Below, one piece after another: positions 1-29,892 of a stretch of DNA of 64,000 bases. The translations under genes were made by a program, and so were the position numbers. The notes below the pieces were generated by a model. That model was not told the origin of the DNA. It saw nothing but the letters and a program-made list of their open reading frames with translations, and made no database searches. This stretch comes from Candidatus Levyibacteriota bacterium (GTDB taxonomy: Bacteria; Patescibacteriota; Microgenomatia; Levybacterales; UBA12049): NCBI GenBank assembly GCA_016186645.1, contig JACPLF010000005.1, positions 109,995 through 173,994 of the forward strand. Direction: 5' to 3'. Positions within the stretch are counted from its first letter, which is position 1; every line of letters begins with the position of its first letter.

Positions 1-18
1 ATAGATAGCACAAAGGAG

Positions 19-445
19 ATGTCTCCTCTTACGGAGATTAATAGGCTTGCAGAATCTTTGCCAGCAGGAGGTTTGGTATTAGATGCGGGTTGCGCTTTTG
101 GGAGAGACACAAAGCTATTTATGGACAGGGGATTTAGGGCTGTTGGAATTGATTTATCTCAACAACGAAGATCTAAAGAAAGCATTGGAAGAATTTCATA
201 GGGTCATAAAAGAAAAGGGTATCTTATTTGTTTCTTTTAAAGAAGGAGAAGGAAGCGAAGAATTAATAGAATCCTTTAGTAGTGACCATCCAAGATTTTA
301 TAATTATCAAACTGCAAATAGCGTAAGGAGTTTCCTTGAAAAATCGGGTTTTAAGCCAACTGAAGTTTTCGTTGTTAATGAAAAAGAAAGATTTGGAAAA
401 GACAAAAGAGATCTAAATTGGGTCTATGCCTTTGCCAGAAAATAA
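19..445 (+). pseudogene. Class I SAM-dependent methyltransferase, apparently frameshifted near nt 170-200
   Basis: ORF 19..201 carries motif I (VLDAGCAFGRDT) and post-I (AVGIDLS). The continuation (LKKALEEFHRVIKEKGILFVSF...) lies in another frame as ORF 83..445. The two frames overlap at 83..201. Confidence 0.45.
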
Positions 446-782
446 TTTTAGTCGCGTTAAAATACTCTGTATTCATGCAATCGCAGCAATATACGGGAAA
501 TAATAAATTAACTAGTGAGTCTAGGGGCATCAGCCTCGTGGCCTATTGAAATTGTAAATCATCACAAATTTTACAATTGCTCAAATTGTGATGATTATTT
601 CCACGTAGCTGAAATGATAAATGTTGGTTTTAAATTCTGAATTAGTTTCAATGTTTCAAAACATTTAAGTAAGTTCAGATTTAGTCTTCCCTAAAGGCTA
701 ATAACTTGACGGCACAAGTTTTTTTCAGACCAAAAGGGAAGAGATGGGGTAGGTTTGGATCTTTTGAAATGGGAGCTTCTTA

Positions 783-890
783 ATCTCTTGAGCTTGACGT
801 TTTGAATTCTTGAAATCAAGATATCAAAAAGTCAAAATCAAAGACGTCCCACTTCCAACTTCAAGGATTCTAACTTTTACTTCTTGACAT
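783..890. repeat. Intergenic palindromic element, copy A (tcttga/tcaaga word type)
   Basis: Homologous to 1800..1921. It ends with the motif cttccaacttcaaggattcta. Confidence 0.6.
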
Positions 891-921
891 TGGTGTATAC
901 AAAGTATACACTAAGTGTATA
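884..921 (+). promoter_or_regulatory. TTGACA -35 box plus a perfect palindrome GTGTATAC-AAA-GTATACAC (93..911), likely the operator/promoter of the antitoxin gene
   Basis: The 19-bp perfect inverted repeat lies directly upstream of the ATG at 921. A TGTATAT repeat follows it. Confidence 0.4.
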
Positions 922-1094
922 TGAATACAGCGGTGATTAATATTAAAACTGATCCCAAAGTTAAAGCACAGGCAAAAAAAATCGCTCGAAAATTAGGTTT
1001 TAGTTTAAGTTCCATAATCAATGCTTTTCTAAAACAGCTTATTAAAACTAGGCGGGTAACTTTTAGTTTGGATGAAGAGCAAAATTGCCGTTGA
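921..1094 (+). CDS. RelB/DinJ-family antitoxin (57 aa); no cognate toxin gene is obvious
   Basis: The translation MNTAVINIKTDPKVKAQAKKIARKLGFSLSSIINAFLKQLIKTRRVTFSLDEEQNCR resembles DinJ ribbon-helix-helix antitoxins. It is under 60 aa, so it is absent from the ORF track. Confidence 0.55.
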   Translation: MNTAVINIKTDPKVKAQAKKIARKLGFSLSSIINAFLKQLIKTRRVTFSLDEEQNCR

Positions 1095-1105
1095 CAGATT
1101 AAGGA

Positions 1106-1435
1106 TTATTTTAGTTTGCGGTCAGATCGTCTATTCTTGATTTCCCTCGTAGCTCTCTTAAGAGCTGGTTTCAAAATTCCGTCTAAAGCTACTAGAAGTC
1201 CAAAAGCCCCTGTCGCAACAAGAAATCCGTGTTTTAAGGCATCGATGTTTTCTGCATGGCCTATTATTTTGTCAGCTGCTGTAAAACTAACACCAAAACT
1301 TATGGTATACAGACCATACTTTTCAACCTCGTTTACTAAAAATTTTTTTGCTTCTTGTGTTCTTCCTATAATACGTTCTTTCATTTCGAGAGTATCGTAC
1401 TCTACTATAAGATTATTGTCAATAACGTATTGCAT
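1106..1435 (-). CDS. Hypothetical small protein with one hydrophobic segment
   Basis: 109-aa ORF with a protein-like composition. It is convergent with the antitoxin gene. The overlapping plus-strand ORF 1116..1469 looks like noise. Confidence 0.3.
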   Translation of the reverse strand: MQYVIDNNLIVEYDTLEMKERIIGRTQEAKKFLVNEVEKYGLYTISFGVSFTAADKIIGHAENIDALKHGFLVATGAFGLLVALDGILKPALKRATREIKNRRSDRKLK

Positions 1436-1469
1436 AAAGAAAAGGAATTTGATATTCTTAATAAGTTTT

Positions 1470-1796
1470 GTGAGCGATCTAAATTTTACCGATCAAACAT
1501 TTAAGAGCGAAGTTTTGGAAAGCTCTGAGCCTGTTATTGTGGATTTTTGGGCGCCATGGTGCGGTCCATGTAGAATTGTTTCTCCAATTATTGATGAATT
1601 AGCAGCGGAATACGCGGGAAAAATAAAAGTTGGAAAACTTAATGTGGATGAAAATCCCCAAACATCAGGACAATATGGAATAATGAGTATTCCAAGTATT
1701 GTATTTTTCAAAAACGGACAGCCGATTAGGACAATGATCGGCGCGCAGAGTAAGGAGAATTATAAAAAGGAAATAGAGGAGATATTAGGAAACTGA
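1470..1796 (+). CDS. trxA: Thioredoxin
   Basis: A GTG start gives MSDLNFTDQTFKSEVLES... with the WCGPC active site. The order and length match E. coli TrxA. Confidence 0.85.
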   Translation: MSDLNFTDQTFKSEVLESSEPVIVDFWAPWCGPCRIVSPIIDELAAEYAGKIKVGKLNVDENPQTSGQYGIMSIPSIVFFKNGQPIRTMIGAQSKENYKKEIEEILGN

Positions 1797-1799
1797 TAT

Positions 1800-1921
1800 T
1801 CTTGAAGTTAGATCTTCTTGACGCTCTTGAATTTGACTCCTTGATATTCTTGATTTCTTGAATTCAAGATTTCAAATATTCAAGATCAAAAATCTCTAAC
1901 TTCCAACTTCAAAAATTCTAT
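1800..1921. repeat. Intergenic palindromic element, copy B; it fills the trxA-trxB gap up to the trxB ATG
   Basis: Shares tcttgaNtcaaga words and the 3' terminal motif ctaacttccaacttcaaaaattcta with copy A and with the copies at 11961 and 47747. Confidence 0.6.
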
Positions 1922-2842
1922 TTGTTTATGTACGACGTTATAATAATTGGTTCCGGACCTGCAGGACTAACTGCTGCGATTTATACGACTCGAGCGAATT
2001 TGAAAACTCTTCTTATTGCAGGAGTTAAATGGGGCGGACAACTTCAGCTTACAACTCTTGTTGAAAATTATCCTGGATTTGCGGAAGGAATCCAAGGCCC
2101 GGACTTAATGACTGCAATGAGAAAACAGGCAGAAAGATTCGGAGCGGAAATAAAAGATGTGGATTTTAAAACTGCGGATTTCTCCAAACCTCCCTTTAAA
2201 GTCTCAGCAGATATCGAAAGCTTTGAGGGAAAATCAGTCATTATCGCAACAGGAGCAGATACAAAATGGCTTGATGTGCCTGGAGAAAAAGAAAAAATCG
2301 GACGGGGAGTGTCATCTTGCGCTCCATGCGATGCATTTTTCTTCAAGGGAAAAAATGTAATTGTTGTCGGAGGAGGAGATAGCGCGATGGAGGAGGCATT
2401 GGTTTTGACTAAATTCGCAAAAGAAATAACGATTATTCATCGCAGAGATGAGTTTAAAGCAAGTCAAATAATGCTTGATCGGGCAAAAAAGAATCCAAAA
2501 ATAAAATTTATTCTAAACTCGGAAGTAATTGAGGTATTAGGACAAGATAAGGTTTCGGGAGTAAAGATTAAAAATAATAAAACCAATCAAGTATCTGAAA
2601 TGCCAGTTGATGGAATTTTTGTGGCAATTGGCCATATACCGAATTCATCTGCATTCAAAGGAATTGATGTTGACGAGAAAGGATTTATCAAAGTTTCGGA
2701 TCATTACAAAACAAATATTGATGGAGTTTTTGTGGCAGGAGATGTTCACGATAACCATTACAAACAAGCAGTCACCGCGGCAGGGTTTGGATGCTCGGCT
2801 GCCCTAGAGGCTGAAAGATGGTTAAGCAATAATGAAGGTTAA
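1922..2842 (+). CDS. trxB: Thioredoxin-disulfide reductase
   Basis: FAD motif GSGPAGLTAAIY, redox-active SCAPCD and the NADPH motif GGGDSAME. 306 aa. Confidence 0.9.
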   Translation: MFMYDVIIIGSGPAGLTAAIYTTRANLKTLLIAGVKWGGQLQLTTLVENYPGFAEGIQGPDLMTAMRKQAERFGAEIKDVDFKTADFSKPPFKVSADIESFEGKSVIIATGADTKWLDVPGEKEKIGRGVSSCAPCDAFFFKGKNVIVVGGGDSAMEEALVLTKFAKEITIIHRRDEFKASQIMLDRAKKNPKIKFILNSEVIEVLGQDKVSGVKIKNNKTNQVSEMPVDGIFVAIGHIPNSSAFKGIDVDEKGFIKVSDHYKTNIDGVFVAGDVHDNHYKQAVTAAGFGCSAALEAERWLSNNEG

Positions 2843-2884
2843 TTTACTTTCGGCACCAATCTCTGCCGCGTTTGACGCGGTGTC

Positions 2885-2965
2885 GATGTTGCGCGGCAAG
2901 CCGCAGCAGGGTTTGGTTGCATGGCAGCATTGGAAGCTGAAAGGTGGCTTCAAGGACCACCATAA
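2885..2965 (+). other. Degenerate GC-rich duplicate of the trxB 3' end (encodes ...DVARQAAAGFGCMAALEAERWLQGPP*)
   Basis: Aligns to the last ~25 codons of trxB (...GDVHDNHYKQAVTAAGFGCSAALEAERWLSNNEG*) at about 75 percent DNA identity. It lies roughly 60 bp downstream of the real stop. Confidence 0.55.
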
Positions 2966-3166
2966 AATATGTGGGTTTTTTATAGCCTTTTCTTTGCCGA
3001 ATTTTAATTTCTCGGTCATGCTCTTTGGCGCAATTCTACTGGCAATGTGAAATAGCTATTTAACTAAACTAAGCGGTCGCTGCATGTAGTTAAATGTCTG
3101 AACTTCATTCCATTGACTTTCTGATTTAAAGAGTATAAAAATAATTTGTAATTTTATTCAGTCAAT

Positions 3167-3643
3167 ATGGGAAAAAACATCGGTTCTGCTTTGAAAAATA
3201 GTAAGACGCTCCATCATGTGAAACATAGTTTGGTTAGATTATTCAAAGACACGAAAAAGAAAAATAGCATTGAGAAGATAGGTTATGTTGCGGGAATAAT
3301 TACTTCAGGTGGACCTGAATATTTCAAAGCAAATAGAAGACGACTGGCTGATTATGTAGGGAAATTACGTAAAATCCACAACTTTCCAATGTTTTCTGCA
3401 ATAGACGTATTTACGAGCGAGGTTTACGAAAGATTAGAGGAGTGGAAACTTCCATTTAGTGAAAGAGAAGTTAAAGCCAGATCTTTTTGGAGAAAAATAT
3501 TAAAAAGCGGACACGTGACAGATATTTTTATGACACCCCGCTTCAAAAAATCAAAAGGAGCAAGTGATGAACACAAAACAGCAAAAGAAATTGGCCTAAC
3601 GATACATTATATGAATGAAGATAAAAAAACAAAAAACAAATAG
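3167..3643 (+). CDS. Hypothetical protein (158 aa)
   Basis: Clean ORF followed by a strong intrinsic terminator. No motif I can name. Confidence 0.5.
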   Translation: MGKNIGSALKNSKTLHHVKHSLVRLFKDTKKKNSIEKIGYVAGIITSGGPEYFKANRRRLADYVGKLRKIHNFPMFSAIDVFTSEVYERLEEWKLPFSEREVKARSFWRKILKSGHVTDIFMTPRFKKSKGASDEHKTAKEIGLTIHYMNEDKKTKNK

Positions 3644-3687
3644 CCATTGACACGGCAAAATGGCTATGATAATATTGCAAATGGAAT

Positions 3688-3716
3688 CACCCCGCCTAGG
3701 CGGGGGTTTATTCGTT
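3688..3716 (+). terminator. Rho-independent terminator (caccccgcc-tag-ggcgggggt plus a T-run)
   Basis: GC stem followed by TTTATTCGTTT. Confidence 0.6.
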
Positions 3717-3854
3717 TATGATAAGAAACTTTCAAGCAATAAAAGTAGTAAATAATACTCAGGTTCTTTTATTGTCTTCGTAAAAAGGGTTCTTCATAAA
3801 TAGATTTACGCGATCCCGTATTGCCTGCCTGACGGCAGACAGGTCTGACATTGG

Positions 3855-3930
3855 GGGCCGTTAGTTCATCTGGTAGAATACTTCATTTGCAATGAAGAGG
3901 TAGGGAGTTCGAGTCTCCCACGGTCCACCA
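3855..3930 (+). tRNA. tRNA-Ala (anticodon TGC), CCA encoded
   Basis: Acceptor stem gggccgt/acggtcc with G3:U70. Anticodon loop tttgcaa. T-arm gggagttcgagtctccc. Lies upstream of the 23S gene. Confidence 0.85.
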
Positions 3931-4630
3931 GTAAATTAACGGCAAAGATAACGGGATCATGATTTAGTAGCTGGTTCTTGGTCTTTCGTTTCAGAAGTTC
4001 TCTGACAAAGACCAGAAACTAGCGACTAAATATTCTGGCTCTTTGACCCTCCTGCGCTAAAAGCTACGGAAGGGTCAATAAGCAAAAACAAACCGTTAAG
4101 GTTAGAGACGGCATCGCCACTCGAAGCTTTAGCGAAGTGTGGCTCTTTGACAAGTGAGGAGAAGCCCTATACAAAGCTTGCTTCGCGTCGGAGGCTTACA
4201 GTCTCGCGCCCGCGAAGTGCGCTTGTACAGGGTAAATTTTTTAATTTTAAAATCTACTCATAATGCCGATAATGAATGCCTAGGAGATTTTGGCCGAGGA
4301 AGGACGCAGACGGCGGCGATACTCGTTGGGGAGGTGCCATCAACCTTTGATCCAGCGGTTTCCGAATGGAGCAATCCACTCGTCTTTGACGAGGAGCCAC
4401 TCATAAAAATATTACCGCAAGGTTTTATATAGTGTTTGGCAGGGTACGGCGCGAACCGAAACATCCAAGTAGCGCCAGGAAAATAAATCATAGACCCCGT
4501 TAGAACTTTGGTAGTAAAACTTGTTACGTTAAGAAAGATTTTGCTAACTTAACTTGAGAAGAGACTTTATTTCCAGAGTTCTAACGGGGTAGAGATTCCG
4601 TTAGTAGCGGCGAGCGAAAGCGGAACAGTC

Positions 4631-4755
4631 TAAAGCGTGCGTAGCACGCAACAGTCAACCAACAACACTTCGCCTTTGGCGAATTTCAACAAACAACAAA
4701 AATTGTTGTGAGTTGTTTGTTGTAAGTTGAAGGTTGCATGCTGCGCATGCGGTTG
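4631..4755 (+). repeat. IVS-like structured insertion in the 23S 5' domain, copy 1
   Basis: About 85 percent identical to 9214..9333. It contains the hairpins gcgtgcgtagcacgc and caacaaacaacaaaaattgttgtgagttgtttgttg. Confidence 0.6.
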
Positions 4756-4938
4756 CAGGGCAGACGATATTCGATGTATTTTTTGTAGCAGAAGGACCCG
4801 GAATGGTCCCCCAAAGAAAGTGAAAGGCTCGTACGCAAAACAAAAAATACCGATAGTTTGTTCCTAAGTACCATGGAGCACGATAAAACTCTGTGGGAAT
4901 CTGGGGCGTCCACGCTCCAAGACTAAATACCAGAATCT

Positions 4939-4977
<39 letters not shown>

Positions 4978-5562
4978 CACCCCGGAAGGGGAATGAAATA
5001 GAACTGAAATTGTCGGCTGACAAGCAGGCAGAGGAACGTAACGCGCAAGCGTGTACGTTCTGATGCCGTGCCTATTGAAGAATGAACCGGTGAGTTATTC
5101 CCTCACTTTCGTCTAAGCCATTAAGTGGCGCAGGCAAAGTGAAAGCAAGCTCTAATTGAGCATTTTTAAAGTGTGGGATTAGACCCGAAGCTGGGTGAGC
5201 TAACCTTGGGCAGGGTGAATCCCGATGAAAATCGGGAGGAGGCCCGAACTCGTGACTGTAGCAATAGTCTGAGATGACCTGAGGTTAGGGGCAATATGCC
5301 AATCGAACCCAGAGATAGCTGGTTCTCCCCGAAATATATTTAGGTATAGCGGTCGCCATGTAGTTGCCTGGGGTAGAGCACTAAATGGTTCGCGGCAACG
5401 CAAGTTGTCGTAACCAATTAAACTCCGAATACAGAGCAACATTGGGCGACTAGTCAGACTGGTCGGGCTAAGCCGATGGGTCAAAAGGGAAACAACCCAG
5501 ACTCCCAATTAAGGTCTCTAAATAAAAGCTAAGTTTAGAAGGAAGTCAAGTTCCATAGACAA

Positions 5563-5593
<31 letters not shown>

Positions 5594-6488
5594 TAAAGAA
5601 AGCGTAACAGCTCACTGGCGGATTGGAATTTGGCGCCCAAAATTTAACGAGGATTAAGCTTTTTACCGAAGTTGGAGGAACGTACACTTTTGCTTTGCAA
5701 AATGTTACGTTCGGTAGGGGAGCGTTCTAAGTGCAGCGAAGTCGTGGTGTAAACCATGGTGGAGTGCTTAGAAGTGAGAATGCCGGTATGAGTAGCGAGT
5801 GTCTGGTGAGAAACCAGGCCGCCGAAAACCCAAGGTTTCCTCCGCAATGTAAATCAGCGGAGGGTTAGTCGGTCCTAAGGGTGTTCCTCTTTGGTCCTAA
5901 GGGTGTTCCTCTTTTGGGGAGTAGCCCGATGGGCAAGTCGTTGAGATTCGACTACAAATTATACATATTCTAAGGGGAAGTCGAAGATAGAAGAATCAAG
6001 GCCAGCTAAGCTGGCTTTAAGTAGTGAAATAGGATGAAATGGTAAATACGTTCATCTGTTTAATTAAGCTACGATGAAAACCCTGAGAGCAATCGAAGGG
6101 TATTTGATCGCTTTTAACTTCCGAGAAATATCCCATTAGTTCCATTCATTTGTGAAAAAATGTATATTTTACCGTACCGACATCCGACACAGGTGGGTTG
6201 GTCGAGAAGACTAAGGCGAACGGGAGAAAGATGGTCAAGGAACTCGGCAATAAATCTGGGCGTAACTTTTGGAGATGCCCTACCAGCTACCATGCGGTAC
6301 CTGGTTGCAACAAAAGATTATTAAGCGACTGTTTATCTAAAACACAGGTCCATGCAAAACTGAAAAGTTAAGTATATGGGCTGAAGCCTGCCCAGTGCTG
6401 GTAAGTCAAAAGTTGAGAATCAGGCTCGCAAGAGTCAAAGTTTTTAACTTAAGCTCCAGTAAACGGCAGCAGTAACTATAAGAAATTG

Positions 6489-7190
6489 TAGTTGTAAAAG
6501 TCGACTAAATGCTGGAAAATCCGTACCGTGATTCTGCTTTACAGAACAAACGGTTGCAGTATCTGACGCTACCATGTATTATGGTAATAATGCGATCAGT
6601 GCGGACAATCAGCAGGAAAGACTTGACGAAGAAAGAGCTAGGATTTTTCCTTGCTGGGTTTGTTGAAGGAGAAGGAAGTTTTAATGTCTCGTTACGGCGC
6701 AAGCCTGACTATAGACTCAAATGGCAAGCGGTAATGAGTTTTAATGTTTCGCAAAAAGACCCTACCTTATTAAAAATTTTAAAGGAGGAGCTAAAATGCG
6801 GAATTATTAAAACACGTAAAAGAGACAATCTATATTCCTTTGATGCAACAAATCCTAAGGATCTAATCCAGAAAGTCATTCCATATTTCAAAAAATATCC
6901 AGTTCAATCTGATTCTAAAAAGAATAATTTTTCTATTTTTTGCAAGATAGCAAAATTAATGGAAAAAGGGGAACACAGAAATTTGGCTGGATTAAGGTTA
7001 ATCCTAAAACTTCGAGAGAAAATAAACATTGGAGCAGGAAGAACAAGGAAATATGATATAGATGATGTTTTTTCTAAGTCAGGAATCCTCAGAGACTATA
7101 CGTCGACGTCCCGCTCAGCGGGACATGATATAGTCCGACCTCATGAACGATCATGAGACTCTGTAATCAATCAGAGTACCGCGATTAGCG
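6489..7190 (+). mobile_element. 23S intron 1, inserted after GTAACTATAA (E. coli ~1917); carries a LAGLIDADG homing endonuclease ORF
   Basis: The exon sequence breaks after gtaactataa and resumes with ctgttctaaggtagcgaa. The intervening sequence encodes the endonuclease. Confidence 0.7.
6509..7156 (+). CDS. LAGLIDADG homing endonuclease (intron-encoded)
   Basis: Contains LAGFVEGEGSF and a second, degenerate motif. The probable start is the ATG at 6590 (MRSVRTISRKDL...). Confidence 0.75.
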   Translation: MLENPYRDSALQNKRLQYLTLPCIMVIMRSVRTISRKDLTKKELGFFLAGFVEGEGSFNVSLRRKPDYRLKWQAVMSFNVSQKDPTLLKILKEELKCGIIKTRKRDNLYSFDATNPKDLIQKVIPYFKKYPVQSDSKKNNFSIFCKIAKLMEKGEHRNLAGLRLILKLREKINIGAGRTRKYDIDDVFSKSGILRDYTSTSRSAGHDIVRPHERS

Positions 7191-7232
7191 GGATAACAAT
7201 GTGAACTGTTCTAAGGTAGCGAAGCCCCTTGT

Positions 7233-7496
7233 CGGGTGATGGAAAAAGCCCGAAAACTGGCTTAAAACGGTGAAGCCCTACCATGTTGCATCGTACAAGA
7301 CGATGTGTAAAAATAGAGGGTGATACCGTGGGTAAGACTTTCTTTTAAAAGAGAGAACCTGTAACGACTTGTCCCGCCAAAGGCGGGACAGAGACATAAT
7401 TTTTATGTCTAATACGCCAGCATTTAGTATAGATTTCATTGGACATTATCTTTCAGGAGATGCCGAAGCCCTATAAAAATCGGGCAGAAGGACAAT
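7233..7496 (+). other. Highly divergent, shortened 23S domain IV/V segment (corresponds to E. coli ~1936-2440)
   Basis: Only loose similarity to the canonical exon sequence. The universally conserved AAGTTCCGACCTGCACGAATGG and GACGGAAAGACCCCGTGAACCTTTACTATA blocks are not found. A weak match (catttagtatagatttcattggacattat) and gtctggtgggcag follow. Confidence 0.4.
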
Positions 7497-7787
7497 GTCT
7501 GGTGGGCAGTTTAACTGGGACGGTTGACTCCTACAATGCAACGGAGTCGTACAAAGGTTGGCTAGCTCCGGATGGAAATCGGAGTGATAGTGCAAAGGCA
7601 TAAGCCAGCTTGACTGCGAGACTTACAAGTCGAGCAGGGACGAAAGTCGGTCTTAGTGATCCTCAGTAGCATAGTGGTATGCTCTGAGCTTAACGGATAA
7701 AAGCTACCCTGGGGATAACAGGCTTATCGCATCCAAGCGTTCACAGCGACGATGCGGTTTGGCACCTCGATGTCGGCTTAACACAAA

Positions 7788-8186
7788 TAGTGTTTGGGCC
7801 CTTCAGTAAATAATTACTGTTGTAAATTTGGCTAATAACGGTGGACTCCTAATTGACTAAGTAAAGTTTCTCAAGTTATGATAAAGTCAATGGACAATAC
7901 CGTGGGAAGTCGCATTTTTCAGAACACTCGGAAGACTCGGTTTTCCAGGAACATCAGAATATCTGGCTATCAGATTGTCTGAGCCTCTGGTTTACTGAGT
8001 AATAATCTGAGTTTTCTGAAATATTGTTGACCCCGTAACGACTGATTCTTTAGCAAACTAAATTGAACCCTTAGTTTGTAATAGATGAGATTCCAGTTTT
8101 TGGAATCATACGCCGAACCCCTCTCTTTTTTCAAAAAAGTGGGGGTGATGATATAGTCTACACTTCTAGTAACAGAAGATTCATGT
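7788..8186 (+). mobile_element. 23S intron 2 (ORF-less), inserted after GATGTCGGCT; it contains repeat R1
   Basis: The exon resumes with catcgcatcctggggg...gggtcgggctgttcgcccgttaaagcggtacgcgagctgggttcagaacgtcgtaagacagt. Confidence 0.65.
7921..8022. repeat. R-family MITE-like element, copy R1 (inside 23S intron 2)
   Basis: Carries the terminal motifs cagaacactcggaagactcgg and ctgagttttctgaaat shared with R2 to R5. Confidence 0.6.
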
Positions 8187-8212
8187 GCATCGCATCCTGG
8201 GGGTGGAGAAGC

Positions 8213-8272
<60 letters not shown>

Positions 8273-8280
8273 AAGACAGT

Positions 8281-9028
8281 AGACCTATAGCGTTAATTAC
8301 GCTATTAAATGAGCTGTCTATAAATCTAGCTATTTGCTGGAAACTCCGAGTATCTTCAACTACTTGACAAATGACTTATCGTAGAGATACGATATCTCTA
8401 TGTCTAGTGATAATGTTGGAAGTGCGGACAATCAGCAGGCAGCTGGGAAAGAAATTTCTAATGAGTATTTAGCAGGATTCACCGATGGTGAAGGGTGTTT
8501 CTATGTGGGATTTGGTAAGAGAAAAGACCTGCCGCTTAAATGGCAAGTAATTACCGAATTTCATGTAAGTCAAAATCCAGGCGGGAAAAATGTTTTGGAA
8601 GAGTTCAGAGAAAGGCTTGGTTGTGGCTATTTAAAGCCCAATCATGCAAAGAGCTTGAAAGACAAAACTTGGATTTTAATTGTGAAAGATAGAAAGGATT
8701 TAAAAGAAAAACTTATTCCTTTTTTTCAGCAACACAGATTGCACACAAGCAAACAAAAAGATTTTGAAATCTTTGTAAAAGTGCTTGAAAAAATTGAAAC
8801 GGGAAAGCATTTAACTAAAGATGGTTTTAAACAAATCGTTGAATTAGTTTTTGCCACTACCAGGGTAACAAATAAAAGATATTCAAAAGAATCACTTCTT
8901 TCCTAGAGCCTCAGAGACTACATGCTAGATGATGCATTGAATAGTGCGTCAAAGATATAGTCCGAACTGCATGGCGACATGTAGAGCGTATCAGAAATGC
9001 TACGTCATTCGTAAGAATGTAACATATT
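8281..9028 (+). mobile_element. 23S intron 3, inserted after GTCGTAAGACAGT (E. coli ~2595); carries a second LAGLIDADG homing endonuclease ORF
   Basis: The exon resumes with cggtctctatccagga...cccctagtacgagaggac. Confidence 0.7.
8400..8906 (+). CDS. LAGLIDADG homing endonuclease (intron-encoded)
   Basis: Contains LAGFTDGEGCFYV. It shares the 19-nt string agtgcggacaatcagcagg with the first endonuclease gene, in a different reading frame. Confidence 0.75.
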   Translation: MSSDNVGSADNQQAAGKEISNEYLAGFTDGEGCFYVGFGKRKDLPLKWQVITEFHVSQNPGGKNVLEEFRERLGCGYLKPNHAKSLKDKTWILIVKDRKDLKEKLIPFFQQHRLHTSKQKDFEIFVKVLEKIETGKHLTKDGFKQIVELVFATTRVTNKRYSKESLLS

Positions 9029-9160
9029 GTCGGTCTCTATCCAGGACAACCGATTGAGATTTGAGGAGATTCGCCCCTAGTACGAGAGGACTGGGATGAG
9101 GAAATCCCTGGTGTGCCAGTTGTTCTTACAAGAGCATCGCTGGGTAACTATATTTCCAAC

Positions 9161-9193
<33 letters not shown>

Positions 9194-9213
9194 GTCTCCA
9201 ATATTAGATCTCT

Positions 9214-9333
9214 AGCGTGCGTAGCACGCAACAGTCAACAATCAACACAGCCGATTCAATCGGCTTTTCAACAGACAACAAAATTGTTGTAAGTTGTTTG
9301 TGGTAAGTTGAAAGTTGCATGCTGCGCATGCAT
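9214..9333 (+). repeat. IVS-like structured insertion in the 23S 3' domain, copy 2
   Basis: Homolog of 4631..4755. Compensatory hairpin changes (cttcgcctttggcgaa versus cagccgattcaatcggct) show it is a structured RNA. Confidence 0.6.
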
Positions 9334-9563
9334 AAGCCCCTTGTAGATCACGAGGTTGATAGGCAGGCAGTGGAAGAACCGCAAGGTTTTAAGCTTACCT
9401 GTACTAATGGTTGAACGAGTAGATTTAAAAATTACCGTGCCCCGCAAAAAGTGCTCTTCGAGCCCGCTACGAATAGTAGCTAAGGCGAAAAGTAAACTTT
9501 GTGGGGTATTCTCCTCACATGTCAGAGAGTCAATTGTACATTGATTTTTGAAGAAAGTAATTC

Positions 9564-9680
9564 TCTGGTAATTAGAGCGACGTGGAACTACCCTTTCCCA
9601 TTCCGAACAGGGAAGTAAAACGCGTCAGCGCTTACGATACTTTTTGCGTATTGCAGAAGGGACAATAGGTCATTGCCAGG
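9564..9680 (+). rRNA. rrf: 5S rRNA
   Basis: Terminal helix tctggtaat/attgccagg. The conserved CCCATTCCGAACAGGGAAGT block is present. Confidence 0.8.
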
Positions 9681-9733
9681 GGATTTCTTTCTTCAAAGGA
9701 AAATTTAAATAAGAATCCACTCCTCACTTTTCT

Positions 9734-9865
9734 CTAAAAATCTTCGTCTTCGTTATTTATTTTTGGCGTATCAATATTACATTGCATGCACATTCCGTTG
9801 GATTCAGTAGCGGCTCTTTGGCATTGTTTTCCTTCGTGGTCATGTCTATTAAAGCAACTACACAT
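9734..9865 (-). CDS. Cys-rich 43-aa peptide (MCSCFNRHDHEGKQCQRAATESNGMCMQCNIDTPKINNEDEDF)
   Basis: A perfect Shine-Dalgarno AAGGAGG sits 7 nt upstream. A TTGACA-N17-TATATT promoter is present. Six Cys and two His in 43 aa. Confidence 0.5.
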   Translation of the reverse strand: MCSCFNRHDHEGKQCQRAATESNGMCMQCNIDTPKINNEDEDF

Positions 9866-10032
9866 AATTTTTCCTCCTTTTAGCATAAATATACATCAAG
9901 TAATAAATTTGTCAACCCACAGACCTTACCTATTGCAAGCAGAGATTTTTTTGTGCTGAAAATATCTTTAATAAATTCATCTTTGCATTTTATTAATTGA
10001 GGATATAAACTCTAAATGAGGATAAGTTTTTA

Positions 10033-10203
10033 ATGAAAGGCTTTTTCGGAGGCTTCTTGCTAATGTCTGGATTAGGGGGTTTGATTATATATTTACCAAA
10101 ACATGACTTTGATTGGTTAACGCTCCTATTTATTGCGCTTTTCTTTATTGGCTTGAATTATGTAATAGATGACAAAATCGATGACAAGTTGGGTAAGCAT
10201 TAA
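10033..10203 (+). CDS. Small two-TM membrane protein (56 aa)
   Basis: MKGFFGGFLLMSGLGGLIIYLPKHDFDWLTLLFIALFFIGLNYVIDDKIDDKLGKH with an upstream TTGCAT-N17-TATAAA promoter. Confidence 0.4.
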   Translation: MKGFFGGFLLMSGLGGLIIYLPKHDFDWLTLLFIALFFIGLNYVIDDKIDDKLGKH

Positions 10204-10205
10204 AG

Positions 10206-10445
10206 TTAAAATTTAACAGAGACCCCGAAATAGTGAAGTACAAAGATAATTCCTGCTAAGCCTAAAATAAAGCAGATAATGCCGATGAGTCGTATTAGGA
10301 CATATTTAAGAATTGCTTCTATTGAAATACTTTCTGCTGATTTTAGATCTTTCATATCAACAGCTATGCTATCTCTAATATCTTTTAAGTTCATAAATCT
10401 CTTTTCAACATTTTCCCAGTTATTTGCAAAAACACAAGTGTACAC
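10206..10445 (-). CDS. Small tail-anchored membrane protein (79 aa)
   Basis: C-terminal hydrophobic helix LIRLIGIICFILGLAGIIFVL. Convergent with the preceding small gene. Confidence 0.35.
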   Translation of the reverse strand: MYTCVFANNWENVEKRFMNLKDIRDSIAVDMKDLKSAESISIEAILKYVLIRLIGIICFILGLAGIIFVLHYFGVSVKF

Positions 10446-10769
10446 GTTTTAGCCTCAAAATATTAAGAAACCTTCAATCAACCTTTGATTTTTTCTCAAT
10501 TTTTCACTGTTTTCAAGTCTAAAGACGGTTTTTATTTCCTGTCAACCCCCAAAAACGCAAAAAACCGATCACCGTGGCCACCATATCGTTGGCCTTCTGA
10601 TCGGTCTCTGAGGTATATCCTCTTTAGACCTGACTATCTATATATTTTAGTCACTTCTTTTATGAAAGTCAATATGATTCTATTGCGGGGCAAATTATTT
10701 TGTGGTACAATGGCGAGACTGTTAAATCAGGTGCCGAATGGTACCTGAAAAGAAAGGTGAATTTAATGA

Positions 10770-19599: not shown

Positions 19600-19974
19600 T
19601 TAAGAATTAAGAATAGATTTTGTCTTCTGAATAAACCCTTGTAATAATTGATGAGTAAAATTTGCCTGTTTAACTAGATCATCTAAGTCTTTTTTGTTGA
19701 GATATCCCACACCTCTAGCAATAAGAATAAAATTCTTAAGTTCTGTTAATGATCCTTGAGCAGTAAAATAAAATTGAAGTTTTTCTTTATATGAATGTCT
19801 GCCAAAACCCTCTGCGATATTTGCTGTTATTGATGCCGCCGATCTTCTCATCTGATCGATCAAAGAATACATCTCTTGTTTCGGAAAGCCTTGTGTAATT
19901 TTATAAACAAGCAGTACTAATTTATGGCCTTCCTGCCAGACTTTCAAGTCTGTAAAAGACTTAATAGTGCTCAT
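19600..19974 (-). CDS. Four-helix-bundle protein (23S rRNA IVS protein / S23-like family)
   Basis: DLKVWQ...QMRRSAASITANIAEGFGR...AQGSLTEL matches the family signature. It is flanked by inverted 'gatttaagaat' repeats. Confidence 0.7.
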   Translation of the reverse strand: MSTIKSFTDLKVWQEGHKLVLLVYKITQGFPKQEMYSLIDQMRRSAASITANIAEGFGRHSYKEKLQFYFTAQGSLTELKNFILIARGVGYLNKKDLDDLVKQANFTHQLLQGFIQKTKSILNS

Positions 19975-25464: not shown

Positions 25465-28400
25465 TTAGTTCACAATAAGCCAGTTGAAAGGGATTGGGTT
25501 TTTGTTGGGGGATTGGACGCCGACAGTAAACTCCGCAGGTAATTGGCGCATTAAAAATGGCGATTGAGCGCTGGGCGTTCCCACAGGAGTTATATAAATG
25601 ACTGACTCGTTGGTTACAAGAGCGTTTTTGATAGTAAGTTCTGCGTAATAGGGAGCGATATTAGCAACCCCTGCTGAAGAACTTGCTATTGCCTCTGTTG
25701 CAGAAACAGCCAATACAGGCTGGACAAGGCTGAAGTTAAGTTTTGCAAAAGTACCGGAACCTGAGGAAATTAAATCGCCCTTTTGATTTATAGATAAAAC
25801 ACCAGACCCGCTTGCATTATTTACAACCAGATCTGAAGTCGGGAGAGGAGAAATAATATTTACAGCAAGTTTGCCTAAAACAGTTAAATCTCCTTGAGTC
25901 GAAATATTTCCGTGGGTATCAATATAAACAAGTCCTCCCATAATTGAAAGTCCGCCTTGCCTTAAGCTTTGCAAAGATAAATCAGTTCCTAATGTTTCTA
26001 TAGAATTTTGCGTAATAAACATTGTTCCTCCTATTGAAATATTTCCTACGACTGAAAGATCGGATAGAGATGTTGATCCAAATACCATAAGTCCTTGATT
26101 GAAAAGTGCCTGTTCTGCTTGAAGATTAGGTACATAAGCAATTTGAGCCGAGAAAGATGCGACATCTATGTAGTTAGATGAGAGATGAGATGTTAGAAAT
26201 GAAAAAGCTCTTAATGTGCCGCTTATTGATGCATTTTCAAACTGACCGTCAAGAGCTGATAACTGACCGCTGAATGATGCATCGCCTTCATTATTAATAG
26301 TAGTGATTGCAGAGCCGCTTGAGTTTTGAATTATGAATTGTGAATCATGAATCTCTGCCGATGGTGTTGCCAATTTGACGATTAATGATTTACCTAGAGG
26401 TGAAATAATATTGGCTGAGACCTGATCAGTTCTTATAATCGGAGAAATTATTCCTGCTTGCCCCCCGAAGTCTTGACGAAGGGGGGATTCTTGAATCACG
26501 TCAACAATATAATCCCTTAGATTCTGGCCGTTAACTATTATATTATCCGAGGTAACAATCAGTGAGTTTGCAATTATTTCTTGAGCGTTAAGAAGGCCGG
26601 TTTTAATATTAGCAGCTACAACTTTAAAAAATCCTCCGACATTACTTAAAGTTTCATTTTGAGAATCAACAGAATAGCCATTGGATCCTGTTTTATGAAT
26701 AATCAGGTCGCCATTATTAGCTAAATACGCGCCCGGATCAAACCAGGAGATATTTGCAAAAGTATTGATCTTTACAATCTTAATGATGTTTGGTTTTAAC
26801 GGAACATTAGGAAAGCCATCCTTGCTTCTATACTCTTTGCTATCAGGATCATAGAAGCCTACTACTTTTCCCTCATCTATAATGTCTAAATTTTCCAAAG
26901 CCTTTCCGACAATTTGTCCTGCTTTTGTTGCTTTTACTGCTACTCCGGGGATATCAGATGATGCTAACGCATCGCCGGCTTTAATCGTTCCGTTAGAGAT
27001 AGAGACGAGAGTATCAACTTGTCCGATAAGACCAACTGCTATTGAGCTATCACCAAGATTTTCTCCTCCCAGAAATGCTGGTCGCTCGGATGCAATACCC
27101 AAAATTTTACCATTATTATTATCACATGGAACAACAAAGCCATTATTTAGACAGACAACAGAGCCAAATTCTATTTTTAGATATTTATCTTTTTTGAAGT
27201 ATTCAGCAAAGTCAGCGACACCGGATGTTGCATAAGTCACGCCTTTCCCGCCACTTCCTTGAATAGATCCGACAATTCCAATTCCTGCTGTTTGAAAGCT
27301 CACAAAGTGATTTGTGCTGGCAACTGCGGTAGTTGAAGTATTGCCCAGTTTTATAACAAGACCATCCGCATCTGTTCCAGAACTTGTATTGTAAATTTGA
27401 GCAGCAGCGGTTGCTGATTGAGAATCTTGAATGTCTAGTTTTGATAATGGTGTCGTTGTTCCAATTCCTACGTTTCCCGTATTGATCCATGAATTATTTC
27501 CGCTAGTTCCGCTAAACTTAATCAAAGCAGAAGAAGTAGCAGTTGCTCCTAGTAGGATATCATCTGATATATTGGTTGGGCTGAGCGCAGCCGAAGCCCT
27601 TTGCCACGGTCCAAATGTTCCTGTTGAGGCAGAATATATGTTGTCAATATAAGCATTGTCCCAAGGCAGAGAAGCAGACCCTAGATTATTGGTTCCGCTT
27701 GTTCCGATCGGAACAAGACTTGAATCTTGTGCGACTCGACCGGTGAAGGTAATAGTGTCAGTGGCTGCATCTCCCAGCGTAACGCTTCCCTGTATATTGG
27801 CTGTTGCATTTCTTATAGTTATGGTGCCTGTTGACGCTCCAAGAACGAGTGTTGTTGCTGCTCCTCCAACATTTAAGGTAGTAACAGTTGAATTCAGAAG
27901 GTTGAAAGTTGTGGCTGTACTTGTCATATCTCCGCCGTTTATTCCAAGATCTCCGGCAAACAATCCAGCCCCATCGCTTTCAACACCAAATTTGGCAATA
28001 CCGGATGTACTGGCGCTAATCAGACTCCCTATTGAATTCTGATTGATATGAAAGGCTGATTGTGCACTTGTTGTTGCCAGTATAGCCACGTTATCATCGA
28101 ACTCTACCGCCCCTTTCATAAATGATACGTTGCTATTGTTTGTGCTATTCTGAATGGGTTTTGAAAGATCTATTTTTCCGACACCATCAGGCACGATTTC
28201 CACCCTGCTATTACTGCCTGGGACTGTTGTCAAAGACAATATGCTTCCGGAAAGCACGAATTGGCCGCCGATGGTCTGAAAAGTGTGCGCTTTTGAGCCT
28301 GCAATGCTAAGATTGCCCGAGGAATCCAAAGCCAAGACGACATTACTTACTTTGGTTGAATTTGTGATGGGTTCAAGTCCTTGTAATGTTTCAGCATTAC

Positions 28401-29892
28401 TTGCAAAAGGCACTGTAGCCAACTCTTGACGCGGACTAAGCTCTGGACCGCTCCCAATAGTAATTCCCAAGAAAAGCTGCGAATTCTGGCTAAAAAGAGT
28501 ATCAGGAATAGGGGTAGTCTTGCCAAGAAACACTGAGAATATCCCATCTGAATCAGGTTCTATCGAGTTGCTTTCCTGCCAAAGAAAGGCCGCACCTGAA
28601 GCATTTTGGTCATTATAGATAGAAAAGAGAATATTTGTCGCATTGGTTATAGGATTATCAGATGAGTCGGTCAGTTTTCCCTGAAAAGAAAGAATTCGGG
28701 GGGGAGCAAATGAAGCTGCAGCAAGTGTCGCTCCTTCTTTTTGGCTTTGTGCAAAAAGACTATCATATGTTCCAAAACCAAGCGCTGCAGCTACGATAAT
28801 AAGGATCGCAAAATGGAAATAATGGGTAAATGAGTATGAGTGATACTTTTTGTACCAGTTGGGTCGTACATGCCGAATATAATGCCAGACTCTTTTGTGG
28901 TTTGGTAAATAGCGTGTTGAAACGGTGAGGGGGGCATAAAACTCCTTCTTAATATTTGAAACCGGAATTAATGACTCAGAGTCAAATTTGGATTTCTTGA
29001 ATACTCTTTTTCCCGATGCTTTCCAAAATAAATACTGTGTACTCTCAACAGTTTTGACAAGCGGCAATATAAAGATGGCATCAAAGAGGAAATCAGCGCC
29101 ATTTATGAGCTTTTGCGTTAATCTCAGAGGTGGAAAAGAAGATCTGTTCGGAATACTCGGAAGACTCGGTGCGTCAGATTGCTCGCCTCGCTCAAGCTTC
29201 GGCGAAGAGGGTCTTATTATCTGATAGTCAGAATTTCTGATGGTCTGGATTTCGGAGTCTTCTGAGTTTTCTGAAATTAATTTCTGGTTTTTTGCCCAAG
29301 CAATATAATTCCTTAAAGACGAAAGTTTTCTATTGATAGTCCTGGGAGAAAATTTAGCCGCAATTAGTCTTTGCTTGTATTCTTCAATGGTTGTGTAATT
29401 GACTTTGTCTAGTAAATTTCTTTCCGTGACAACCCATGCGTATTTGATAAGCGTTACTTCCTCAAGCCACACGAAGAAACTTTTGATATCGTTGATGTAG
29501 TTTTTTATAGTAAGATTAGATTTTTTATACTCGTAAAGATAGCTTTTGAAATTCCTAAGCATCCATGGATCCGCCTCCGCCAAGGCTTCGGCGGACACAG
29601 TCCTTTTTTCAAGTGGATCTTGTGAGATTATTTTGTTTGTTTGGAGCAACTTAAAAAACTTACGCAAAGAGGAAAAATGTCTCTCCATGGAGCTTGGAGA
29701 AAGACTCCTTGCTTTTTTGTACTGATCTAAGATGACAAGGTTAACTTTTGATGGATCAAAAGGGGAATTAAATTCTTTTTCGAACCAGTTTATAAATTGT
29801 CCGATATCAGCTTTATAATTTTTGAAAGTAGAAAGAGATGGTGTATCTTTTTGATTTATCAGGAAATTAAGGAATTGTTGTAATAAATTCAT
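25465..29892 (-). CDS. Giant (1475 aa) cell-surface protein: N-terminal integrase-SAM-like repeats, one TM helix, then a long Ser/Thr/Gly/Asn-rich extracellular region
   Basis: Three core-binding-like repeats (FKNYKADIGQFINWF / IKNYINDIKSFFVWL / INRKLSSLRNYIAWA). TM helix HYFHFAILIIVAAALGFGTY. No recombinase catalytic domain. Confidence 0.6.
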   Translation of the reverse strand: MNLLQQFLNFLINQKDTPSLSTFKNYKADIGQFINWFEKEFNSPFDPSKVNLVILDQYKKARSLSPSSMERHFSSLRKFFKLLQTNKIISQDPLEKRTVSAEALAEADPWMLRNFKSYLYEYKKSNLTIKNYINDIKSFFVWLEEVTLIKYAWVVTERNLLDKVNYTTIEEYKQRLIAAKFSPRTINRKLSSLRNYIAWAKNQKLISENSEDSEIQTIRNSDYQIIRPSSPKLERGEQSDAPSLPSIPNRSSFPPLRLTQKLINGADFLFDAIFILPLVKTVESTQYLFWKASGKRVFKKSKFDSESLIPVSNIKKEFYAPLTVSTRYLPNHKRVWHYIRHVRPNWYKKYHSYSFTHYFHFAILIIVAAALGFGTYDSLFAQSQKEGATLAAASFAPPRILSFQGKLTDSSDNPITNATNILFSIYNDQNASGAAFLWQESNSIEPDSDGIFSVFLGKTTPIPDTLFSQNSQLFLGITIGSGPELSPRQELATVPFASNAETLQGLEPITNSTKVSNVVLALDSSGNLSIAGSKAHTFQTIGGQFVLSGSILSLTTVPGSNSRVEIVPDGVGKIDLSKPIQNSTNNSNVSFMKGAVEFDDNVAILATTSAQSAFHINQNSIGSLISASTSGIAKFGVESDGAGLFAGDLGINGGDMTSTATTFNLLNSTVTTLNVGGAATTLVLGASTGTITIRNATANIQGSVTLGDAATDTITFTGRVAQDSSLVPIGTSGTNNLGSASLPWDNAYIDNIYSASTGTFGPWQRASAALSPTNISDDILLGATATSSALIKFSGTSGNNSWINTGNVGIGTTTPLSKLDIQDSQSATAAAQIYNTSSGTDADGLVIKLGNTSTTAVASTNHFVSFQTAGIGIVGSIQGSGGKGVTYATSGVADFAEYFKKDKYLKIEFGSVVCLNNGFVVPCDNNNGKILGIASERPAFLGGENLGDSSIAVGLIGQVDTLVSISNGTIKAGDALASSDIPGVAVKATKAGQIVGKALENLDIIDEGKVVGFYDPDSKEYRSKDGFPNVPLKPNIIKIVKINTFANISWFDPGAYLANNGDLIIHKTGSNGYSVDSQNETLSNVGGFFKVVAANIKTGLLNAQEIIANSLIVTSDNIIVNGQNLRDYIVDVIQESPLRQDFGGQAGIISPIIRTDQVSANIISPLGKSLIVKLATPSAEIHDSQFIIQNSSGSAITTINNEGDASFSGQLSALDGQFENASISGTLRAFSFLTSHLSSNYIDVASFSAQIAYVPNLQAEQALFNQGLMVFGSTSLSDLSVVGNISIGGTMFITQNSIETLGTDLSLQSLRQGGLSIMGGLVYIDTHGNISTQGDLTVLGKLAVNIISPLPTSDLVVNNASGSGVLSINQKGDLISSGSGTFAKLNFSLVQPVLAVSATEAIASSSAGVANIAPYYAELTIKNALVTNESVIYITPVGTPSAQSPFLMRQLPAEFTVGVQSPNKNPIPFNWLIVN
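29146..29278. repeat. R-family element, copy R2, in-frame within the giant surface-protein gene (encodes a low-complexity linker)
   Basis: Carries gttcggaatactcggaagactcgg ... tctgagttttctgaaatt. Confidence 0.6.

Follow-up and report, generated by a model that had tools for sequence, protein, structure and literature searches.

A GC-clamped hairpin module at two sites of a Levyibacteriota 23S rRNA gene belongs to an apparently undescribed family of elements in stable RNAs of the Candidate Phyla Radiation type

The 64,000-nucleotide (nt) stretch of Candidatus Levyibacteriota bacterium DNA analyzed in this study (contig JACPLF010000005.1, positions 109,995 to 173,994; hereafter the window) contains a 5.2-kb 23S rRNA gene on the forward strand (4251-9427), for which the Rfam RF02541 alignments cover model positions 1-633 and 2566-2925. 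The gene holds three group I introns, one unrelated hairpin, and two copies of a structured element, A (4635-4750, forward strand, 116 nt) and B (9215-9331, forward strand, 117 nt), whose boundaries were set by a covariance model and agree with the families found by repeat search. An earlier note, made from the sequence alone, had reported that an insertion of about 120 nt occurs twice within this gene; this held, with essentially the same boundaries, and the two copies are 82% identical (98 of 120 aligned columns, 81.7%). With one internal hairpin left aside, 93 of 101 columns agree (92.1%), compared to only 5 of 19 (26%) within that hairpin. Probes made from the ends of the element (25 nt at the 5' end, 29 nt at the 3' end) each have exactly two matches in the window at up to three mismatches, where the expectation by chance is 0.00 (100 shuffles). 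Covariance model R1, run on the same 64 kb, likewise finds these two copies and nothing else, with scores of 77.7 bits for A (E = 9e-16; antisense 50.8 bits) and 75.5 bits for B (E = 3e-15; antisense 47.3 bits).

The Rfam 23S alignments show inserts of 99 nt and 109 nt at the sites of the two copies. Copy A replaces the hairpin at LSU model positions ~274-300 (E. coli nt ~272), directly after GGCGAGCGAAAGCGGAACAG, and copy B lies between E. coli nt ~2787 and ~2815, positions that we take, in approximate standard numbering, to be helix 15 and helix 98, respectively. Neither of the ~117-nt elements contains an open reading frame (ORF). A cmscan of positions 1-10500 at E <= 0.01, which detects all three group I introns of the 23S gene, gave no match over either copy, so that a known Rfam family, including group I or group II introns, can be set aside.

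Both copies fold into a Y shape, at -59.1 kcal/mol for A and -55.0 kcal/mol for B (z = -7.85 and -6.87), and none of 200 shuffled sequences folded as well, which supports the view of the earlier note that this is a structured RNA element. The fold consists of a basal stem formed by the two termini, a variable hairpin 1, and a conserved hairpin 2. From its base, the stem runs through ~11-12 bp, a 1x1 C.A mismatch, and 5 bp before becoming more interrupted. Each terminus carries a 15-nt GC-rich clamp. The 5' clamp (4635-4649 in A, 9215-9229 in B, both on the forward strand) reads GCGTGC-GTA-GCACGC in both copies and is a perfect local 6-bp palindrome, and the 3' clamp (4736-4750 in A, 9317-9331 in B, forward strand) reads GCATGC-TGC-GCATGC and, in A, pairs with the 5' clamp except for one C.A mismatch. 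The hairpin-1 cassettes are UUCGCC-UUU-GGCGAA in A (4669-4683, forward strand) and AGCCGAU-UCA-AUCGGCU in B (9249-9265, forward strand); the earlier note had interpreted this difference as compensatory substitution, but it is a wholesale swap of one hairpin cassette for another. Hairpin 2 of A (4687-4715, forward strand; CAAC..ACAACAA-AAA-UUGUUGU..GUUG) is kept in five of five members of the subfamily. The bulge-helix-bulge motif (two 3-nt bulges separated by a 4-bp helix) is absent from the minimum free energy structures, which speaks against an intron of the archaeal bulge-helix-bulge type. The architecture is that of a duplicated insertion resembling an intervening sequence (IVS) or an expansion segment at two sites of one 23S gene, as had been suggested from the sequence.

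Relatives of the two copies were found in other genomes and in metagenome contigs, for which locus numbers beginning with L are used below. A scan of genome collections with the exact 5' 18-mer returned 14 loci, among which the only relevant one was L008, a Patescibacteria metagenome-assembled genome carrying an element with the same 5' end in its 16S gene. The other 13 are unrelated isolated hairpins in other phyla. In L003, L013, and L014, which belong to unrelated Bacteroidota and Chloroflexota, the GCGTGCGTAGCACGCAAC 18-mer is the core of isolated perfect hairpins that look like terminators and fall outside the clamp family. A degenerate two-clamp pattern applied to metagenome contigs gave 109 loci, 41 of which have an AT-rich interior and were kept (interior GC <= 0.46); the remaining matches, approximately two thirds of the total, were dropped on interior GC content as GC-rich chance matches. 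Together with the two window copies and the second element of L047 (L047b), the 41 matches reduce to 32 unique sequences. Syntenic Levybacteria-like loci were additionally retrieved through homologues of the intron-encoded LAGLIDADG protein. Taxonomic labels are available for the window, L008, and a few of the LAGLIDADG homologues; we infer from rRNA features that the other metagenome contigs with elements belong to the Candidate Phyla Radiation (CPR; Patescibacteria).

The metagenome scan and covariance-model searches combined define a family of more than 30 distinct elements at ~16 sites, and the case considered by the earlier note, in which no other copies exist, is contradicted by dozens of relatives in other genomes, at many sites and in three RNAs. 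Additional clamp alleles built on the same plan came to light in the syntenic loci, in a looser clamp scan, and with R1, namely TTGTGC..GCACAA with TCGCGC..GCGCGA, CGATGC..GCATCG with CGCTGC..GCAGCG, TCGTGC..GCACGA with TCATGC..GCATGA, and TTTTGC..GCAAAA with TTCTGC..GCAGAA. Some 23S genes contain several elements, as in L019, where R1 gives five matches at E < 0.05. The same elements recur in independent assemblies (L027 and L088; five assemblies around L016; L019, L075, and L087), and many assemblies and sample series have 15-nt clamps of identical sequence.

The family module is ~95-140 nt long, with a 15-nt GC clamp at each end and an AT-rich, internally repetitive, hypervariable interior. 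Interiors differ wholly between subfamilies and are built of short tandem motifs such as CAAC/GUUG, AAAGU, CAUAG, GCGAAU, and GUCAA. The clamps have the general forms ..TGC-NNN-GCA.. at the 5' end and ..YGC-NNN-GCR.. at the 3' end, with the main consensus GCGTGC-RYA-GCACGC and GC(GC|AT)GC-TRY-GC(GC|AT)GC, respectively. The 5' clamp of the window copies is identical in 20 of the 32 unique members, a frequency that is biased by the fixed GCGT at the 5' end of the search pattern, as are those of the other clamp alleles. Nearly all clamp 15-mers are perfect palindromes of 6 bp with a 3-nt loop (all 32 of the 5' clamps and 31 of the 32 3' clamps); where the 3' clamp changes from GC to AT, the change occurs on both sides, preserving local palindromy. 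The central triplets of the two clamps covary, with GTA accompanied by TAC or TGC, ATA by TGT, and GCA by TGT or TGC. Because each clamp stays locally palindromic, the long stem formed between the clamps permanently contains a symmetric pair of U.G and A.C, at positions 4/12 or 3/13. With a 3' clamp of full complementarity, the stem would gain ~4-8 kcal/mol in stability over the observed clamp pairs, yet such clamps are essentially never used, even though the search pattern permitted them. The duplex between the clamps amounts to -23 to -27 kcal/mol, compared to -15 to -18 kcal/mol for two local hairpins, and the long stem is conserved along with the local palindromy. This combination fits three readings of the clamp: folding may proceed in two stages, the long stem arising first and the terminal cap hairpins once cleavage has taken place; a homodimer such as RNase III may recognize a duplex with dyad symmetry; or a DNA enzyme may recognize palindromes in double-stranded DNA.

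Several lines of evidence indicate that selection acts on the RNA. All 41 AT-rich matches run in the same direction as their host RNA. In 29 of the 32 unique elements, the fold of the sense strand is more stable than that of the antisense strand (mean difference -6.7 kcal/mol; Wilcoxon p = 3e-6), G.U pairs favor the transcript strand, and for both window copies the sense R1 score exceeds the antisense score by 25-28 bits. Over the 24-bp basal stem of 30 distinct sequences, 88.8% of positions are paired, compared to 82.9 +/- 0.7% in shuffled alignments (none of 500 reached the observed value), while controls in which the stem was slid pair at only 17-55%. Changes on both sides of a pair were seen at nine pairs, in 47 cells versus 16.6 +/- 3.7 cells in shuffles of the same 30 sequences. 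Eleven members of different subfamilies all fold as long hairpins (z = -5.0 to -9.3). Real covariation appears at the level of the family only, the closely related five-sequence subfamily being too conserved to be informative. Because of the sense orientation, the G.U bias, and the covariation, the two window copies are seen to be constrained at the RNA level, as part of the sense pre-23S RNA, where they form an irregular Y-shaped hairpin of ~45 bp closed by the clamp.

The distribution of insertion sites is equally restricted. Site mapping places the modules at helix tips or linker positions of variable helices (positions below are in E. coli numbering, and the helix names are our approximate readings). 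In 16S rRNA, they occur at ~70/101 (h6), ~186/216 (h10), and ~453/478 (h17). In 23S rRNA, they occur at ~272 (H15), 1866/1875 (the tip of H68), ~2400 (H88), and 2787/2815 (H98), with variant clamps at ~535/553 (H25; L136/L137), ~1167/1182 (H45; L134), and 2127/2167 (H78), as well as at ~228, ~415, ~645, and ~1421, for which no helix is named, and in the trailer just 3' of the 23S end. The third host is RNase P RNA, where the module is found just before E. coli rnpB nt 292, in the P15-P17 region (RF00010 matches in L081 and L063). Judging from known ribosome structures, the element sites are presumably exposed on the subunit surface. Every family member examined lies within a stable-RNA transcript (16S, 23S, or RNase P). 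A clamp-pair scan of 220 kb, comprising the window and L126-L141, gave no credible match in coding or intergenic DNA, and an R1 search of 340 kb gave nothing significant outside rRNA transcripts and RNase P genes; a lone match upstream of a 23S gene (L096, 551-632) has E = 0.97. No credible match to either the clamp scan or R1 was obtained in the E. coli controls.

Comparison of sites within and between genes bears on how the modules came to occupy them. Different sites of one gene share subfamily and clamp allele, as is the case for H15 and H98 in the window and for L022, L133, and L096: the 16S h6 and h17 elements of L022 are 92% identical over 64 nt, TTGTGC clamps occur at three to four sites in L133, and CGATGC clamps occur at three sites in L096. 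Hairpin-1 cassettes have also changed places, since cassette B is found at H15 in L102 and cassette A at H98 in L027/L088, the reverse of the arrangement in the window. Compensated hairpin-1 variants of cassette B occur in L037 and L133. In L133, whose flanks are ~75% identical, the Y interior is of the window type with hairpin 1 AGCCAC/GUGGCU, yet the clamps are TTGTGC. In L141, an upstream exon is 98.4% identical to the window, but the H98 element is only 45% identical and differs in both clamp and interior; interiors thus turn over much faster than the host rRNA. At the other extreme, the interiors of one subfamily (AGUUUAUAAAGU...) recur at six different sites, which are spread over 16S, 23S, and RNase P RNA. 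Empty and replaced sites occur among close relatives. At H98, the hairpin is wholly absent in L134 and L136/L137, a short GCAA-tetraloop hairpin stands alone in L132, L135, and L138-L140, and L019 and L040 are empty or have the short GCAA hairpin only, while L119, L028, L053, L134, and L135 have a short native hairpin at H15. Because subfamilies are shared within genes, cassettes are swapped, and sites are empty or replaced, in-situ growth is excluded, and copying or exchange combined with fast turnover is required. The same module at two sites reflects copying or exchange between sites rather than evolution in place. Copying may have proceeded by ectopic recombination between clamps or by an RNA-mediated route.

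The restriction of the family to helix tips of stable RNAs, always in sense, suggests that the two copies are IVS-like structured modules, copied between sites and, as a prediction, probably cleaved by RNase III, an interpretation that we consider probable. In this 23S gene, one module stands in the place of helix 15 and its sister copy in that of helix 98. The long duplex would provide a substrate of the RNase III type, like the stems of classical rRNA intervening sequences, and cleavage would remove the AT-rich interior. The GC clamp would then act as a staple between the two rRNA fragments, or else refold into a pair of hairpins capping the ends. With its ~20 near-perfect base pairs, the foot of the hairpin is plausible as a target of RNase III. 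In the Coxiella IVS, for comparison, RNase III cuts in the middle of a terminal stem of 28 bp that contains one mismatch and one bulge, and what is left of this stem may keep the fragments attached to each other (PMC4990558). Additionally, CPR rRNA insertions have been predicted to be removed on the basis of comparisons between genes and transcripts (Brown 2015, as cited in PMC9297842). A 24-nt inverted repeat (4140-4163 and 9509-9532, 88% complementary) encloses the whole 23S gene, and this processing stem of the RNase III type was also counted in favor of an IVS-like element. Like the intervening sequences of Salmonella, Leptospira, Coxiella, Campylobacter, and alpha-proteobacteria, the clamped modules are extra rRNA sequences at helix tips, sporadic among relatives, with complementary termini forming a long stem with a mismatch, a conserved stem, a variable interior, and use of helices 25 and 45. 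Unlike these, the clamp family spans ~16 sites in three RNAs (16S, 23S, and RNase P), its 15-nt clamp is locally palindromic at both ends, it has no ORF, and the window copies lie at H15 and H98.

There are several points that weigh against this interpretation. Classic IVS sites are 23S helices 9, 25, and 45. The window copies, at ~272 and ~2787-2815, are not in these helices, although members of the family elsewhere do occupy helices 25 (L136/L137) and 45 (L134). The positions of the window copies are, in our understanding, ones that carry retained expansion segments in other lineages, with H98 corresponding to ES39L. Cleavage at the 16S and RNase P sites would fragment those RNAs as well, which would be unusual. 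A plain RNase III substrate needs no palindromy, whereas here local palindromy is kept at the cost of an A.C mismatch. Finally, no RNase III gene is present in the 64 kb of the window, which is a small part of the genome.

An alternative that is possible, although we judge it doubtful, is that the modules are retained expansion segments, forming ~45-bp "tentacles" on the mature 50S subunit, 30S subunit, and RNase P that would either have no effect or offer a CPR-specific factor a surface on which to dock, with copying between sites as described above. H98, H15/16, H31, H54, H25, and H45 are sites of expansion segments in eukaryotes and archaea, and the clamped modules resemble such segments (ES39L at H98, ES5L near H15/16, and the supersized ES9 and ES39 of Asgard archaea) in using the same scaffold positions and in forming long helices of simple repeats. 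Their location at variable helix tips and linkers, together with RNA-level conservation of structure and a G.U bias on the sense strand, is what would be expected of a retained helix, and the extended helices of CPR RNase P RNAs described by Lui et al. (2021; PMC8172020) as "large extensions of helices" are drawn there as part of the RNA. However, the interiors outpace the host rRNA in turnover and look disposable, consisting of short repeats of the slippage type, transcripts are reported to lack the insertions (Brown 2015, as cited in PMC9297842), and the presence of one module in ~16 unrelated structural contexts argues against a site-specific role. Moreover, expansion segments are retained and homologous by position, whereas the clamped modules share sequence at non-homologous positions, H15 and H98 among them, end in a conserved clamp, and have cassettes that are swapped among close relatives.

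It is also conceivable, but in our estimation unlikely, that the clamps are recognition sites of a dedicated CPR enzyme system. In one version, a homodimeric endonuclease, with or without a ligase, may excise the modules, which would make them a new class of protein-dependent "hairpin introns" of bacterial stable RNAs; in another, the modules may spread as RNA, an excised hairpin being ligated back into a loop exposed on an abundant stable RNA and reaching the gene by reverse transcription and recombination. Such a system would explain the restriction to three RNAs, the sense-only orientation, the lack of target-site duplications, the genome-specific clamp alleles common to every site of a gene, and the maintenance of the palindromes.

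A transposon acting at the DNA level, similar to miniature inverted-repeat transposable elements (MITEs) or to doublets of repetitive extragenic palindromes (REPs) such as REPINs and bacterial interspersed mosaic elements (BIMEs), and seen only in rRNA and RNase P genes because insertions elsewhere in a compact genome were lethal or soon lost, appears very improbable. The resemblance is one of form: these elements are also hairpin units of ~100 nt with two inverted palindromic ends, conserved ends, and a variable middle, so that the clamps resemble REP sequences or terminal inverted repeats and could be read by a dimeric DNA enzyme; the clamp alleles are uniform within a gene, and a DDE_Tnp_1 transposase gene is present in the window (49006-49896). 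REPINs and MITEs, however, are extragenic, present in many copies in either orientation, and dependent on RAYT or another transposase, whereas the clamped elements are confined to stable RNAs, are all in sense with G.U pairs favoring the transcript strand, and have no linked transposase in the 64 kb inspected. No clamp is found at the ends of the DDE gene or near it. At none of 31 junctions is there a direct repeat of 3 bp or more that would count as a target-site duplication, no motif marks the targets, intergenic and coding copies are lacking in the 220 kb scanned for clamp pairs and the 340 kb searched with R1, and phage and plasmid collections and viral contigs contained nothing beyond chance. 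No gene for RNase III, RtcB, a reverse transcriptase, or a Y1/RAYT transposase was found in the 64-kb window. No long, ORF-carrying versions bounded by clamps were found among the retrieved loci, all long-range clamp pairs being the clamps of neighboring short elements. Lastly, independent growth of helices with convergent slippage, to which the short tandem motifs of the interiors (CAAC/GUUG, AAAGU, CAUAG) and the cryptic simplicity familiar from eukaryotic expansion segments might point, or an artefact of assembly, is practically refuted by the 92% identity over 101 columns between sites, the identical clamps across many assemblies, and the same elements in independent assemblies, and ~117 nt is presumably short enough for single reads or read pairs to span.

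Outside bacteria, mobile hairpin elements of organelles (the GC clusters of yeast mitochondria, the double-hairpin elements of Allomyces, and the repetitive hairpin-forming elements of sponges; PMC2800124) are likewise short structured palindromes in variable regions of rRNA genes and can be co-transcribed with the rRNA. Unlike the modules, they abound in intergenic DNA and introns, have other sequences, and belong to another domain of life. Rickettsia palindromic elements are selfish palindromes of ~100-150 nt tolerated within genes, at the surface of the gene product. They differ from the clamped modules in lying mostly in protein-coding genes, where they are translated, and they have no sequence or clamp relation to them.

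Tsurumaki et al. (2024; PMC11270868) report ORF-less, non-intron insertions, mostly <200 bp, in CPR 16S and 23S genes as "uncharacterized" and guess that those at known IVS sites are IVS-like. The clamped elements are almost certainly the same objects as the "uncharacterized short insertion sequences" of PMC11270868 and Brown 2015. Section 5 of the main text of PMC11270868, and the passages of that text returned by term searches, contain no mention of a shared clamp or sequence, recurrence at multiple sites, RNase P, or turnover. Literature searches, which included the literal clamp sequences and extended to sources other than Brown et al. 2015 itself, yielded no description of a shared clamp, of spread over multiple sites and RNAs, or of exchange. 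A clamped hairpin family in stable RNAs of the CPR type is apparently undescribed, and its novelty is rated as that of a variant within the IVS kind rather than a new category. The rRNA genes of the CPR are known for their many insertions, of which the short ORF-less ones have so far been an uncharacterized residue. If these form one clamp-defined family that 16S, 23S, and RNase P RNA have in common and that moves between sites and lineages, the clamp and R1 would give a sequence handle for annotating and masking them, with consequences for the design of 16S and 23S primers, rRNA gene calling, and the detection of RNase P in the CPR, and the spread of IVS-type elements could be tested on hundreds of natural insertion, empty-site, and replacement events. 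In addition, a dyad-symmetric clamp with an obligatory U.G/A.C pair would predict a specific trans-acting partner, either RNase III or a new one, and such a processing pathway would set the actual rRNA composition of these minimal ribosomes.

The earlier note had also pointed to two genes for four-helix-bundle proteins elsewhere in the window as possibly related to the inserts. Both are indeed PF05635 genes: the ORF at 19600-19974 (reverse strand) encodes a genuine PF05635 (23S_rRNA_IVP, bAvd-like) four-helix-bundle protein (E = 9e-35), and the second (reverse strand; E = 8.6e-9), beside the DDE transposase gene, is truncated (50054-50572). Two further PF05635 genes (L129, 5257-5856 and 6392-6769) lie in an ATP-synthase operon just past the end of the window, giving at least four free-standing paralogs in this genome. 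Their neighbors are unrelated (Rho, HicB, an M23 peptidase, VKOR, and the DDE transposase), and neither a reverse transcriptase nor a clamp occurs near them; with both window genes free-standing and no clamp nearby, the proposed link to the inserts is unsupported.

The remaining features of the 23S gene include the three group I introns, at 6482-7203 (E. coli ~1917, with a single-domain LAGLIDADG ORF at 6509-7156), 7786-8187 (E. coli ~2515), and 8281-9072 (E. coli ~2604, with a single-domain LAGLIDADG ORF at 8400-8906). For the intron at ~2604, the 3' segment is 100% identical between L140 (1-680) and L141 (730-1400), as is the LAGLIDADG protein (P0008), while the flanking 23S exons are only ~87% identical; the comparison indicates a recent horizontal transfer of the intron. 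The unrelated hairpin, an insert of 101 nt (4491-4591) with termini ACCCCGUUAGAAC.../...GUUCUAACGGGGU, occupies the E. coli ~228 site, which carries clamped family members in the CPR 23S genes L028 and L053. At 5688-5702, approximately at the tip of helix 45, there is a solo clamp-like hairpin, TTTTGC-TTT-GCAAAA (6 bp with a 3-nt loop), that matches in form the 5' clamp of the L136 H15 element. At 5871-5914, 22 nt are repeated exactly in tandem (GGTCCTAAGGGTGTTCCTCTTT x2), which could be a real micro-expansion or an assembly slip.

Around the gene, a 26-nt inverted repeat (9547-9572 and 9672-9697) encloses the 5S gene; judged by sequence, this repeat and the one around the 23S gene are classical processing stems of the RNase III type. 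A tRNA-Ala(UGC) gene (3855-3930) precedes the 23S and 5S genes, with thioredoxin and thioredoxin-reductase genes upstream, and the same synteny is present in the relatives L134 and L135. No 16S gene was found in the window, the 23S and 5S genes are unlinked to 16S, and the contig extended by 10 kb at each end contained neither the 16S nor the RNase P gene of this genome. The RadA and S1 proteins of the window are exactly MBI2613446.1 and MBI2613445.1 of a Candidatus Levybacteria metagenome-assembled genome, and sequencing runs SRR12113384, SRR12113420, SRR12113422, and SRR12113430 contain this strain as well. Further along, the reverse strand at 25465-29892 contains an ORF of 1475 amino acids with an odd architecture, combining two N-terminal phage-integrase SAM-like domains with a Peptidase_G2 autoproteolytic domain.

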